A stretch of DNA of 11,809 nt from a virus (Duplodnaviria; Heunggongvirae; Uroviricota; Caudoviricetes). Of the stretch, positions 1 to 3,365 are shown piece by piece (positions within the stretch are counted from its first letter, which is position 1; every line of letters begins with the position of its first letter). The DNA is taken from the IMG/VR virus record IMGVR_UViG_2563366941_000003, one strand, 5' to 3'. A program made the translations under genes and the position numbers. The notes under the pieces are model-generated. The model was not told the origin of the DNA. It saw only the letters and a program-made list of their open reading frames with translations, and made no database searches.

Positions 1-128
1 AACTGCAGTTGCCATGTTTTACGGCAGTGAGAGCAGAGATAGCGCTGATGTCCGGCGGTGCTTTTGCCGTTACGCACCACCCCGTCAGTAGCTGAACAGG
101 AGGGACAGCTGATAGAAACAGAAGCCAC
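1..128 (-). CDS. insA: IS1 InsA (transposition regulator / transposase N-terminal part), 5' portion only; 3' end lies outside the window
   Basis: GTG start at 126-128 (minus). Translation [42 protein letters not shown]... matches the InsA zinc-finger N-terminus as I recall it. Confidence 0.8.
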
Positions 129-183
129 TGGAGCACCTCAAAAACACCATCATACACTAAATCAGTAAGTTGGCAGCATCACC
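1..183 (-). mobile_element. IS1 insertion sequence, terminal 183 bp including the ~23-bp terminal inverted repeat (element continues beyond window start)
   Basis: Reverse complement of 1-183 reads GGTGATGCTGCCAACTTACTGATTTAGTGTATGATGG...GTGGCTTCTGTTTCTATCAGCTGTCCC, which I recognise as the IS1 end and insA start. Identity asserted from memory, not from a search. Confidence 0.85.
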
Positions 184-228
184 GAGGCCATCTTCACTAA
201 AAATTTCACGTAATTCTTCGATTTTCAT
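184..228 (-). pseudogene. 5' fragment (15 codons, MKIEELREIFSEDGL) of a gene interrupted by the IS1 insertion
   Basis: ATG at 226-228 (minus) preceded by a GGAAGGA Shine-Dalgarno ~9 nt upstream. The frame runs straight into the IS1 inverted repeat and stops 8 codons inside IS1. Identity of the disrupted gene unknown. Confidence 0.35.
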
Positions 229-354
229 CAACAGAATCCTTCCAGATAAATAGCACTCCCCCTGTTCGGGGTCCATCCCTCTTCTCCCTGCGCGCTACTT
301 AAGTATTTTTGATTCTATTCTGGCACCGTCCAAAACTTCAAACACGTTGAAAAT

Positions 355-382
355 AAAAACAAAAAACCCGCCGAAGCGGGTA
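355..382 (-). terminator. Rho-independent terminator of the two-gene cassette
   Basis: Minus-strand RNA ACCCGC-UUCG-GCGGGU hairpin (GC stem, UUCG tetraloop) followed by a U6 run, 4 nt after the stop of the 386-1489 gene. Confidence 0.65.
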
Positions 383-385
383 TAC

Positions 386-1489
386 TCAAACAATCTGGAA
401 AATATTTCTTGGATTTGTAATAGGTCTGTTGATGGAGAACAACTCACGAATTAAATCTTGGCTCAAGCCAGTTTTCATAAGAATTCTTAGCCAGGTTGCA
501 TCATCCAGCATTTCAATCGCCTCGGCCAGCATGCCGGGTTCTTCAGGGCGCAAAAGTTCATCACCAGGTTCAACTCTCGTATACCCTCTGGAATTAAGAT
601 GCATATAGCCAGTTCTTGCCTGTTCCTGGGTCAATAAGCCTAATGCGCTGGCTCGATAAATACACATTTTAAGGCTGATTTTCCATCTAAGTTTAAATTC
701 AACCAGAGCATTCCAGTCGAATTGCTTACCTCGTATTCGTGGAAATTCTTTAATGAAAGATAACCTGGGAACTAATAAGGCGCTCGAAAAGTGATCGGCT
801 TGTGATTCCGTAAGTTTATCACCTGTCGTTATGCCCTCATGCATTACTAAATGCCCTAATTCATGACCTAAATCAGAGCGAAATCTACATATGCTTTTTT
901 TAACATTGTTCCTGATGATAACAGGCCTGTTATTGTGAACAGTAAAAGCATCAACACGATCATCGACTCCCGTAACATGCGCAACGATTACCCCTAAACT
1001 CTCCGCCAATTTAACCATTGATGATATAGGGCCAAGACCTAAATTCCAGGCACGGCGACAATCTTCTGCCACTCGCTCAATATCATTCGGAGTAAGTAAT
1101 TCAGCCCCTGGGTGCTCCGGTATGTTAACGTCAGGAAATTCGATTTCACCTTCAACAGCAGAAATTATAATATTAAGAATCTCAGCCCTGGCCAATACAC
1201 TATTAGTCAGCGTTTGAGTCCTGGACTTCTTACTCCGAAAATGGCAGACATCACTTTCCAGAGCGTATTTTCGTTCAGTAAAAAGAAAACTGGACTTAAT
1301 CATAAGCGCTGAAGATATTAACTCAAGACATTGCTCCGATGGCCTGCACCCCTTCTCCAGTTTGCTAACGAATTGCTTTGTCTTGCCAATTTTTTCGGCT
1401 AACTCTTCACAAGAAAGCCCAACAGCCATTCTCGCTAGTTTGAGCTTATCACCCCGATACTCAGTGAAGTTATTCACCTGATGTTCCAT
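386..1489 (-). CDS. Fusion protein: N-terminal XRE-family HTH + ImmA/IrrE-type (M78, COG2856-like) zinc metallopeptidase + ~130-aa C-terminal domain of unknown function
   Basis: ORF track 386..1492; ATG at 1487-1489 (GTG at 1490-1492 is an alternative). HTH-like segment LSCEELAEKIGKTKQFVSKLEKG near the N-terminus. HExxH zinc motif HELGHLVMH mid-protein. Overlaps the upstream gene by ~20 nt, suggesting translational coupling. Confidence 0.75.
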   Translation of the reverse strand: MEHQVNNFTEYRGDKLKLARMAVGLSCEELAEKIGKTKQFVSKLEKGCRPSEQCLELISSALMIKSSFLFTERKYALESDVCHFRSKKSRTQTLTNSVLARAEILNIIISAVEGEIEFPDVNIPEHPGAELLTPNDIERVAEDCRRAWNLGLGPISSMVKLAESLGVIVAHVTGVDDRVDAFTVHNNRPVIIRNNVKKSICRFRSDLGHELGHLVMHEGITTGDKLTESQADHFSSALLVPRLSFIKEFPRIRGKQFDWNALVEFKLRWKISLKMCIYRASALGLLTQEQARTGYMHLNSRGYTRVEPGDELLRPEEPGMLAEAIEMLDDATWLRILMKTGLSQDLIRELFSINRPITNPRNIFQIV

Positions 1490-2120
1490 CACTGCTCACA
1501 TCCAAATCTTTATCCTTCGTACGCCGACGAAGAGGCACCTTATTAATCTCCGCTTCGTCAGGGAGTGTGTTATAATCAAGAGGCATAAGCGGCATCGATG
1601 CTGTAGATTGATGAGAAACTATACTAATCTGAGCACCATAAGTATTAAATCCAACAAGAGCTACCTCCCAACGAGGCAGTGTGGACTCTAATTCACCATC
1701 GCCCTCTTCGGATAAAAAAGGCTCAGCTATGACTCGCCATGTAATATCTTGCTCAGCCTCAACATCACCAAACAATGAGAGCTGCTCATACTCTACTTTA
1801 TTTCGACGCAGACGATGTTTCTTTTTGGGGTTATTAATGCAATCTTTGGTAAATTGTAGCGGAACTTTATTTAAAGCAACTACATAGTCCAACCCCTTGG
1901 AAATCATCTCAAGGCCAGGAATTGCATCTTCATTTTGAATAAGATGATTTCTGACCCAATCATAAGCCCTTACACCTTCAGACCAGTTGCTGTCTAATGC
2001 GTGCTTATGATAGTACAGCTGCTCAAGTACGTTAGCGATCTCCGCCAACAAGTGGCGAACATAGTTTTCAGCAAGATAAGGTTGAAATTCCCAACAAGGA
2101 GCTAACTGATTTTCATTCAT
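1470..2120 (-). CDS. Hypothetical 216-aa protein, first gene of the cassette; candidate toxin/effector partner of the HTH-peptidase
   Basis: ATG at 2118-2120, stop at 1470-1472. No motif I can recognise. Basic patch NPKKKHRLRRNK and an acidic C-terminal half. Read as coding from ORF length, overlap with the downstream gene and promoter/terminator context only. Confidence 0.65.
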   Translation of the reverse strand: MNENQLAPCWEFQPYLAENYVRHLLAEIANVLEQLYYHKHALDSNWSEGVRAYDWVRNHLIQNEDAIPGLEMISKGLDYVVALNKVPLQFTKDCINNPKKKHRLRRNKVEYEQLSLFGDVEAEQDITWRVIAEPFLSEEGDGELESTLPRWEVALVGFNTYGAQISIVSHQSTASMPLMPLDYNTLPDEAEINKVPLRRRTKDKDLDVSSDGTSGE

Positions 2121-2149
2121 TTCAAGTTTCGCTTTTTTTAGAATTCGTA

Positions 2150-2190
2150 AACCACATATTTTCGCATTTTTCTATTTTTGTCAACCAGAC
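2150..2190 (-). promoter_or_regulatory. Candidate sigma70 promoter for the two-gene cassette
   Basis: Minus-strand TTGACA (plus coordinates 2179-2184), 17-bp spacer, then AAATAT (2156-2161), ~35 nt upstream of the ATG at 2120. The -35 is perfect, the -10 is weak. Confidence 0.4.
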
Positions 2191-2195
2191 TAATG

Positions 2196-2217
2196 CAAAA
2201 ACCCGCCGAAGCGGGTT
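2196..2217 (-). terminator. Rho-independent terminator downstream of hok
   Basis: Same ACCCGC-UUCG-GCGGGU hairpin as at 355-382, followed by U5 on the minus strand. A further GC stem (about 2258-2281) lies in the hok 3' UTR. Confidence 0.6.
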
Positions 2218-2285
2218 AAGTGCGGGTGCGTTGAGGATGCCTGGCACATCAGAGGTGGCGGGAGATTACTCCCCCGCCGGGTCTC

Positions 2286-2441
2286 TTACTCCTCAGGTTC
2301 GTAAGCTGTGAAGACAGCGACCTCCGTCTGGCCGGTTCGGATTCGTACCTCGCAGAGGTCTTTCCTCGTTACCAGTGCCGTCACAATGACGGTTAAACAG
2401 ATGACGATCAGGGCGATTAACATCGCCTTTTGCTGCTTCAT
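2286..2441 (-). CDS. hokD: Hok/Gef-family type I toxin (51 aa membrane peptide)
   Basis: MKQQKAMLIALIVICLTVIVTALVTRKDLCEVRIRTGQTEVAVFTAYEPEE, with the Hok hallmark hydrophobic N-terminus and the LCEV...R..G..EVA.F.AY core. GGGGAA Shine-Dalgarno 8 nt upstream. Closest to HokD/RelF as I recall it; family assignment is firm, paralog less so. An in-frame upstream ATG at 2496-2498 gives the 70-aa track ORF (mok-like leader frame). Confidence 0.85.
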   Translation of the reverse strand: MKQQKAMLIALIVICLTVIVTALVTRKDLCEVRIRTGQTEVAVFTAYEPEE

Positions 2442-2678
2442 AGCCTGCTTCCCCTTGCCTTTCGGCACGTAAGAGGCTAACCTACATTTGTGAGACATAG
2501 ATTGGGCCTCAGATTAATGTTAAGCGTCTTGCAGGACGCGAAATGTTAACTGGGGCTTTTCTCTATCTGCCTTTCAGTGTTCATGCCTGAGACAGATAGC
2601 CTCAAGCACCCGCAGCCATTCTACTTAACTCACGTCACCTCGCCAATATGAAATCAATCAGAAAGGTGATCCATAAAA

Positions 2679-3365
2679 TCACTCCTTCTCTTCTTTTCCG
2701 TAGTGGAGTTGGCCAATTTTGATAAGAGGGCGTCCCTGAGATTTGCGGTGTAGATTGGTATCGCGCAGAGAATACACACAGCCACAATATTCCTGCTGAT
2801 AGAATTTTTCGCGCTTGCTGATTTCAATCATACGGGACGAGCCGCCCTGCTTGCGCCAGTTATAATCCCAGTACACCATACCCGGATAATGCGCAACAGC
2901 TCGCCGCCCACACTCGTTAACCTGCTGCATATTTTTCCAGCGTGAAATGCCCAGTGAACTGCTGATCACACTGAAACCATTTTCAGCAGCGTACAACGCT
3001 GTCCGCTCAAAACGCATGTCAAAACACATGGTACAACGGATCCCCCTCTCAGGCTCCCATTCCATTCCTTTGGCACGTTCAAACCAGTTGTCGGTGTCGT
3101 AATCAGCATCGATAAACGGCACGCCGTGTTGTTCAGCAAAGCGAATATTTTCATCCTTACGAATTAAATACTCTTTCTGAGGATGAATGTTCGGGTTGTA
3201 GAAAAAGATGGTGTAGTCGATTCCCGAGGCCTGAAGCGCCTCCATCACTTCACCGGAACATGGAGCACAGCAAGAGTGCAGTAGTAGTTTGTTTGCCCCG
3301 TTTGGGAGCTCCAATTTAGGCCGTTTGAAATCAGCAATAGTCATAAATATTTTTATTGGGGTCAT
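2679..3365 (-). CDS. queH: QueH-like (DUF208) epoxyqueuosine reductase homolog
   Basis: N-terminal [11 protein letters not shown] signature plus CTMCFDMRF and EYCGC cysteine motifs typical of DUF208/QueH Fe-S proteins. Start ambiguous between ATG 3363-3365 and ATG 3342-3344; neither has a clear Shine-Dalgarno. Confidence 0.65.

Follow-up and report, generated by a model that had tools for sequence, protein, structure and literature searches.

A terminator downstream of hokD as a probable reusable cassette slot in lambdoid prophages of Escherichia

We analysed a stretch of 11,809 nucleotides (nt) of Caudoviricetes DNA (IMG/VR record IMGVR_UViG_2563366941_000003, called the window here), in which two identical 20-nt copies of the hokD transcription terminator enclose a two-gene cassette of the RosmerTA toxin-antitoxin (TA) system. 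In related prophages the filled and the empty forms of this site differ by one discrete cassette together with one terminator copy, the same position is used by other cargos, and the mosaic joints lie in the terminator. The explanation that we consider probable is that the terminator after hokD serves as a reusable slot for morons, and that recombination over the short homology of the terminator brings cassettes in, removes them and replaces one by another. Morons are independent transcription units of lambdoid phages with their own promoter and terminator (Cumby et al. 2012, PMC3594210).

The repeated terminator and the cassette between its copies

The exact 20-mer AAAAACCCGCCGAAGCGGGT is present twice in the window, at 362-381 (left copy) and at 2197-2216 (right copy), with 1835 nt from start to start. 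Even when 3 mismatches were tolerated, no third copy was found in the window. Since 0 matches were expected from 200 dinucleotide shuffles and the 20-mer is the sole long exact repeat in the region 184-2700, a chance repeat was ruled out. The identity ends at 20 nt, where the preceding bases are a and c and the following bases a and t, and the sequences beyond the two copies have no further similarity to each other. This divergence directly outside the repeat had been described in an earlier note made from the same sequence. The note placed the two identical copies at 361-380 and 2197-2216; the repeat and its right copy were confirmed, and the left coordinates had to be shifted by one because an extra A precedes the left copy.

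All local genes are on the minus strand. On this strand both copies read ACCCGC-UUCG-GCGGGU followed by a run of U, which makes a perfect hairpin of a 6-bp stem and a 4-nt loop with the cUUCGg tetraloop. Both were scored as intrinsic terminators on the minus strand in a consensus scan, and both form a predicted hairpin upon folding, with -10.9 and -15.1 kcal/mol and z-scores of -3.0 and -3.6, respectively. The features between hokD and the left copy are the following.

362..381, minus strand: left terminator copy (T_L), 4 nt past the rmrA stop codon; recognised by 20-mer match, terminator scan and fold
386..1492, minus strand: rmrA, RosmerTA antitoxin, with an XRE-type helix-turn-helix (HTH) domain and an M78 (ImmA/IrrE) zinc peptidase domain with a HELGH motif
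1470..2120, minus strand: rmrT, RosmerTA toxin (PADLOC RmrT, 4.6e-25)
2156..2189, minus strand: predicted cassette promoter region, TGGTTGACA, read from the sequence, with the -35 element at 2184-2179
2197..2216, minus strand: right terminator copy (T_R), the intrinsic terminator of the hok mRNA, 69 nt past the hokD stop codon; recognised by 20-mer match, scan and fold

The predicted cassette promoter, rmrT and rmrA thus lie between the copies, as the earlier note had proposed for a cassette with its promoter. The rmrT gene is the upstream gene of the operon and overlaps rmrA by about 20 nt; in the RefSeq annotation rmrA starts at 1489. The product of rmrA was identified as RmrA by PADLOC (6.2e-105) and matches the Pfam families Peptidase_M78 (6.4e-11) and HTH_3 (5.2e-7). 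For RmrT, no Pfam or NCBIfam family was matched. RosmerTA is a published TA anti-phage system, and the neutralisation of toxicity by RmrA and the protection against phages were reported for other RosmerTA alleles (Millman et al. 2022; Ernits et al. 2023). The pair in the window resembles it in having an HTH and zinc peptidase antitoxin RmrA and an adjacent RmrT toxin of unknown fold; the likeness concerns the cargo alone and not the repeat. We infer from this likeness that the cassette at 382-2216 is an anti-phage defence module.

The predicted promoter combines a perfect -35 element, TTGACA, with a weak -10 element, AAATAT, at a spacing of 17 nt, and it was not called by the consensus scan. 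It is kept in the 80% identical cassette of another locus (L127). The motif TGGTTGACAA at 2179-2189 extends the -35 element by 3-4 bases and is found again at the promoter end of the RosmerTA cassettes of loci L154, L207 and L127. The cassettes that share this motif are otherwise without nucleotide similarity; L154 has it twice, and L207 has one exact copy and the near-copy TGGTTGACAC. RmrA might bind this motif as an operator through its HTH domain. The GC content of the cassette side is 0.40-0.44 over 301-2100, versus 0.46-0.52 over 2101-3300 on the side of hokD and QueH.

Empty and filled alleles of the hokD site

The earlier note had suggested looking in related prophages for a single 20-mer with the cassette absent, and such a precise empty site was found. 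In strain 95-3322 (L003), the window positions 184-381 align to 2290-2484 with 90% identity and the positions 2196-2676 to 2464-2943 with 94% identity, and these two flank alignments overlap only on a single 20-mer. The same order of rem, terminator and hokD was observed in the loci L008, L015, L074, L076, L083, L093, L102, L113, L115 and L117, and at least 11 IMG/VR loci join both window flanks at a single 20-mer. In L003, L015, L002 and about 90 IMG/VR loci, just one terminator parts hokD from rem, or from a 273-nt gene in place of rem. The sole copy in every empty-site allele corresponds to T_R. The empty site is also present in the isolated phages HannyBb and mEp460, in PPompW prophages and in a Rac-like record, where a 2.5-kb query collapses to about 650 nt. 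Among 50,697 phage records, the cassette itself was found in 0. Shorter, empty alleles are abundant among the relatives, the absence of which the earlier note had named as a finding against its proposal.

For a systematic comparison, 121 loci that carry the hokD-proximal flank were oriented as the window; 113 of these are from IMG/VR. The allele length was determined with rem, the 273-nt gene or DUF968 as the anchor gene, where it could be located. Whenever the anchor was at the empty distance, one terminator copy was present, without exception. The longer alleles all had a second copy, and their anchor distance corresponded, within a few bases, to the empty distance plus the copy-to-copy period. 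The 113 IMG/VR loci comprise 94 with one copy, 18 with copy, cargo and copy, and 1 odd variant. In line with the discrete, possibly exchangeable unit suggested in the earlier note, filled and empty alleles differ by one cassette-plus-terminator unit.

Different cargos at the same point, each bounded by two terminator copies, were also found in other prophages, where the earlier note had advised to look for them. All loci examined taken together, there are six cargo classes with mutually unrelated inner ends, each of which touches the terminator on both sides.

Window-type RosmerTA: period 1835 nt
RosmerTA variant of L154: period 1835 nt, no nucleotide similarity to the window type
RosmerTA variant of L207: period 1865 nt, no nucleotide similarity to the window type
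HTH protein and 158-amino-acid ImmA-like peptidase (L138/L232): period 1348 nt
Phd/Doc-type TA, a small antitoxin and a Doc toxin (L116, L230, L186, L196, L107): period 840-847 nt
130-amino-acid lipoprotein-like gene (L004/L005 and five others): period about 665 nt

The repeats are identical in 20-22 of 20-22 nt in several of these cargos (window, L116, L138, L154). The Doc toxin was identified by matches to Pfam Fic (1.6e-11) and TIGR01550 (3.8e-35), and for the Doc allele of L116 the matching empty sites with the same outer flank are L092 and L103. In the 5,426 complete genomes of E. coli, the window-type cassette was found in 237, with at least 99% identity in 224 of them, and the Doc cassette in 125.

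Several alleles showed further peculiarities. In two lipoprotein alleles (L004, 2091-2200; L005, 2092-2209), a remnant of about 110 nt with 72% identity to the 3' end of rmrA lies beside the left copy. Their right copy is degenerate (GAAAAAACGCCGAAGCGGGT) with a broken stem. These alleles thus look like a RosmerTA cassette that was overwritten in part, and the transcription of hokD may read through there. In E. coli SMN013SH2 (L244, 2000-2720), the Doc cassette and the left copy stand in a background without rem, hokD and the right copy are absent, and the 5' 130 nt of the cassette are swapped for unrelated sequence that bears a different terminator. In E. coli O104:H4 C227-11 of the 2011 outbreak lineage (L247, 1357-1986), the Doc cassette occupies the slot and a pair of a RelE/ParE-family toxin and an HTH protein follows on the opposite strand directly beyond the left copy, so that three TA modules, hok/sok, Phd/Doc-type and RelE-type, stand in a row. 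Two draft contigs of Escherichia albertii NBRC 107761 (L235, L239) end at or near the terminator. The second has ...caccagactaatgc before the terminator and shares only the last 13 or so nt with the end of the window's cassette, which hints at a further cargo or a shared short junction sequence. In four IMG/VR loci (L163, L194, L222, L200), the hokD terminator carries a second small hairpin in its loop, e.g. AAAAAACCCGCCGAAacgctgagagatcacagcgatggGCGGGT, as a nested-hairpin variant. A third RosmerTA type was observed in E. coli 2015C-3163 (L130, 2782-4540) and in similar genomes of Shiga toxin-producing E. coli, with an rmrA of about 70% identity. This type occupies the opposite flank of hokD, where DUF977 is its other neighbour, and no terminator copy parts it from hok. 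There are thus two positions at which RosmerTA modules are associated with hokD.

Proposed recombination within the terminator and the alternatives

The 80% identical RosmerTA cassette of L127 is located in a different lambdoid nin region that has no hokD. Its homology to the window extends only from 386, the rmrA stop codon, to 2187, just past the -35 element, and the terminators at its flanks, aaaaaacccgcATATAgcgggttt and aaaaaacctctaacttagaggctttt, differ from the 20-mer. That the terminator belongs to the cassette was ruled out by this locus. Because the cassette uses other terminators there, the 20-mer has to be assigned to the hokD slot instead of the RosmerTA cassette.

The earlier note had held that a 20-mer which is a widespread generic terminator would speak against an exchangeable unit. 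The 20-mer is in fact widespread: the exact sequence was found in at least 120 IMG/VR contigs, mostly from environmental samples and mostly with unrelated flanks. In loci from the IMG/VR scan, hokD adjoins only 17 of 124 copies, and the rest have unrelated flanks. This leaves the slot standing, because the series of filled and empty alleles is direct evidence for it. In about 36 unrelated, mostly environmental viral contigs (L013, L017, L038, L068, L091, L097, L098, L109 and about 28 more from IMG/VR), the 20-mer is directly followed by the conserved segment TATTGCCYGGAG with a Shine-Dalgarno sequence and by a start codon. The open reading frames (ORFs) downstream are diverse and often long, and L098 has two such units. 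The combination looks like a widespread intergenic element of a hairpin and a ribosome-binding site.

With a terminator that is so common, each cargo could have brought its own, which by chance would be the same optimal cUUCGg hairpin as after hokD. The Doc cassette of L244, which has the left copy without hokD or the right copy, also fits such a coincidence. However, the second copy is present in 18 of 18 filled alleles, the copies are identical in 20 of 20 nt in several unrelated cargos, and one unit of cassette plus terminator accounts, within a few bases, for the difference between empty and filled alleles. The RosmerTA cassette outside the slot, moreover, has different terminators. We regard the coincidence as highly improbable.

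The joints to the left background were then compared. The left backgrounds vary, with rem, without rem and several others, and all of them start at the A-tract of the terminator, in the empty and in the filled alleles alike. The Doc cassette meets at least 5 different left backgrounds exactly at the left copy. The window-type cassette is found in a background with rem (L001) and, with 94% identity, in a background without rem (L126). In L126, the left copy starts with CAAAA like the empty alleles without rem, and the right copy starts with AAAAA after the cassette's own ...ctaatgc end like the window. The joint between background and cassette in L126 is therefore inside the 20-mer, because its left copy is of the rem-less type and its right copy is of the window type.

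The segment 382-2216 would then be a moron with its own promoter, rmrT, rmrA and one terminator copy, placed at the terminator of the hok mRNA, and its arrival would result in the order terminator, cassette, terminator. Crossovers within the 19-22 nt of terminator that all partners have in common would allow gain, loss and exchange of the cassettes and also the reshuffling of the downstream phage modules. We infer that the recombination is presumably catalysed by RecET/Red-type enzymes of the phage or by those of the host. In this process phage genomes could exchange unequally, or the cassette and one terminator could form a circular intermediate. The distal, left copy would keep transcripts from the presumably constitutive cassette promoter out of rem, ydfU, rusA and Q in the lysogen, which is the logic of a moron. 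The earlier note had proposed insertion of the cassette at the terminator after hok, or its exchange through this terminator, and the empty alleles and the alternative cargos at the same point support this proposal. Its further statement that the terminator was duplicated holds for the result, two copies, which could arise by a crossover in the terminator or by a staggered cut.

Several points weigh against recombination within the terminator as the explanation. A synthetic query of left flank, terminator and right flank detected no near-isogenic empty allele in the 5,426 complete E. coli genomes. Since the flanks of even the best empty alleles reach only 92-96% identity, the search caught no recent gain or loss. 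The lipoprotein alleles with the rmrA remnant point to an internal replacement and not to a fresh entry at the terminator. The window-type cassette was not found bounded by terminators at a site other than hokD; the inspected copies with at least 90% identity all adjoin hokD. In addition, 20 bases is short for efficient homologous recombination, and joints at module boundaries could partly result from selection for intact transcription units and not from a preference of recombination.

Some of these points fit a different history, in which the terminator was duplicated once in an ancestor together with a first RosmerTA-like cassette. The interior would have been replaced later and the block would have spread via its long flanks, hokD on one side and the 273-nt gene and DUF968 on the other, without any special role of the terminator. 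The 72% identical rmrA remnant beside the left copy in L004/L005 is what such a history would leave behind, RosmerTA-type modules dominate the slot, and the identical cassette occurs in mosaically different phages, which fits block transfer through long flanks. Yet five cargo sets with mutually unrelated inner ends all touch the terminator on both sides, at least 8 different left backgrounds begin exactly at its A-tract and the breakpoint of L126 is inside the left copy. Replacements that always end at the inner edges of the terminators would again imply recombination at the terminator. A single ancestral duplication is therefore unlikely to us.

Alternatively, a trans-acting enzyme might recognise the hairpin and insert non-autonomous cassettes, either with duplication of a 20-22-nt target or by a recombination like that at attC sites. 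Such an enzyme could be a transposase, a recombinase specific for hairpins or one of the structure-specific nucleases of the nin region. In favour of such an enzyme, exact 20-22-nt repeats flank several unrelated cargos (window, L116, L138, L154), the site is a perfect hairpin, and RusA is encoded nearby, as are NinG and NinB in relatives. However, the cassette has neither terminal inverted repeats nor a recombinase gene, the annotation of the 21-kb locus shows no integrase and, apart from unrelated insertion sequence (IS) elements, no transposase, a 6-bp stem with a 4-nt loop is far below the size of attC, and the left copy varies in its first base with the left background and not with the right copy. 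To our knowledge, a duplication of 20 nt would be unusually long for a transposase, and we know of no precedent. We consider a dedicated enzyme of this kind improbable. Two specific forms of it were ruled out: a transposon with target-site duplication by the lack of terminal inverted repeats and of a transposase, the two ORFs being RmrT and RmrA, and an integron-like attC by the size of the 20-nt perfect hairpin and by the lack of an annotated integrase in the 21-kb locus.

Genomic surroundings, known systems and significance

The remaining features of the region, all on the minus strand, are as follows.

1..183, minus strand: left end of IS1 (inverted repeat and InsA N-terminus), interrupts the rem-like gene, outside the cassette
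184..276, minus strand: rem-like ORF, N-terminal part, MKIEELREIFSEDGL..., matches the rem-side flank of empty alleles with 89-97% identity
312..341, minus strand: promoter-like site TTGAAG-18-TAGAAT, upstream of rem and just downstream of the left copy, from the consensus scan only
2217..2611, minus strand: hok/sok type I TA module with the hok mRNA 3' region, hokD, the mok frame and the sok region
2286-2441, minus strand: hokD (Pfam HOK_GEF, 3e-23; RefSeq annotation hokD)
to 2498, minus strand: mok frame, overlaps hokD
2436-2611, minus strand: sok region (Rfam sok RF01794, 120.5 bits, E 3.5e-28)
2679-3365, minus strand: QueH, upstream of hok/sok in the order of transcription

From position 184 onward, the window is colinear and 99.97% identical with E. 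coli 118UI. In 118UI, a Qin/Rac-like lambdoid prophage has its early-right operon in this region, with the gene order YdaS, YdaT, O-like, P, DUF1627, DUF977, QueH, hokD, cassette, rem remnant, 273-nt gene, DUF968 (ydfU), RusA and Q. A RecE-type exonuclease gene is present in the same prophage. The rem-like gene adjoins the hokD terminator in the empty-site alleles and is severed by IS1 in the window; annotations of rem exist in L003 and the phages mEp460 and PPompW. For the stretch 1-183, about 76,000 matching places were counted in E. coli genomes, and the translation of 3-128 on the minus strand matches Pfam Zn_ribbon_InsA with 3e-22. All cassette-bearing relatives align only from position 184. 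Because the IS1 junction (183/184) was found in 0 of the 5,426 complete E. coli genomes, the IS1 insertion is evidently peculiar to the source strain and has no connection with the cassette. A role of IS1 in the arrival of the cassette was ruled out, as its end is 178 nt outside the left copy and is absent in the other carriers. Among the GTDB species representatives, the junction of hokD and the terminator was found only in Escherichia and Shigella, apart from two metagenome-assembled genomes; these are labelled as other taxa and likely reflect contamination.

Morons of lambdoid phages were reportedly described by Juhala and colleagues in 2000. The cassette of the window is like a moron in that it lies between genes that are adjacent in related phages, has its own terminator and is lower in GC than its surroundings. 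It is also predicted to be expressed from the repressed prophage to the benefit of the host. Unlike here, the definition of a moron does not include a terminator that is a second copy of that of the upstream gene, nor a single position that is reused by many cargos with the junctions at the terminator.

The closest parallel to the repeats themselves are the PeSLs of T4-type phages, repeated cassettes of a promoter and a stem-loop terminator that flank variable ORFs. There, sister genomes retain a single element at the empty site, mini-circles were detected and recombination between the repeats was proposed (2010, PMC2839356). Likewise, repeated stem-loop terminators flank non-essential genes in the window and a single element remains in its empty relatives. 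However, a PeSL conserves about 100 bp including a sigma-70 promoter, whereas only 19-22 nt of terminator are shared in the hokD slot and the promoters that adjoin its copies are unrelated. The phages with the hokD slot are temperate lambdoid prophages with defence and TA modules as cargo, and whereas mini-circles were demonstrated for the PeSLs, the slot is described here from sequence alleles.

Defence hotspots have been described in P2/P4 prophages and satellites (Rousset et al., bioRxiv 2021.01.21.427644) and defence islands in E. coli (PMC10121019). By their description, they share with the slot a fixed position in a conserved prophage backbone with alternative anti-phage systems according to the strain; they differ in that they are defined by conserved flanking genes.

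An analogy can also be drawn to integrons. An integron cassette consists of an ORF and an attC site, which is an imperfect palindrome of 57-141 nt. In both cases, a repeated hairpin stands at the 3' end of the cassette and the states differ by a cassette and one element. The hokD slot differs by its 20-nt perfect terminator hairpin, by cassettes with their own promoters and by the absence of an integron integrase.

A more far-reaching idea is that the hairpin is a portable recombination site of temperate phages, where units with two copies loop out as a circle and re-enter at other copies. RusA and NinG/Rap, as structure-specific enzymes of the nin region, or RecET might assist. Because the 20-mer is common in phage genomes, there would be many potential sites of this kind. 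We put this idea forward tentatively, as a possibility that is doubtful at present. If it were true, lambdoid phages would trade defence cassettes in an integron-like manner with little need for a recombinase, and the PeSL idea of the T4-type phages would then also cover prophages.

The ingredients are all of known kinds: RosmerTA as the cargo, the moron or defence hotspot as the concept and, as the likely mechanism, recombination at terminator elements that are repeated. In the literature that we covered, which was incomplete and may have missed an earlier description, we found neither a hokD hotspot nor terminator-flanked morons of lambdoid phages described. The terminator-bounded slot after hokD in lambdoid prophages of Escherichia appears to be new.

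Taken together, our results describe a compact cargo slot in common lambdoid prophages of E. coli and Shigella, which can be found by a sequence search for two copies of the hokD terminator. About 1 in 6 of the sampled hokD loci carries a TA or defence cassette in the slot, so that further defence genes could be sought there, such as the uncharacterised pair of an HTH protein and a peptidase or the small lipoprotein. The slot also bears on how the mosaic joints of phages arise, by recombination at short shared linkers or by random illegitimate joining and selection. Dozens of joints inside one 20-nt element favour the linker model.

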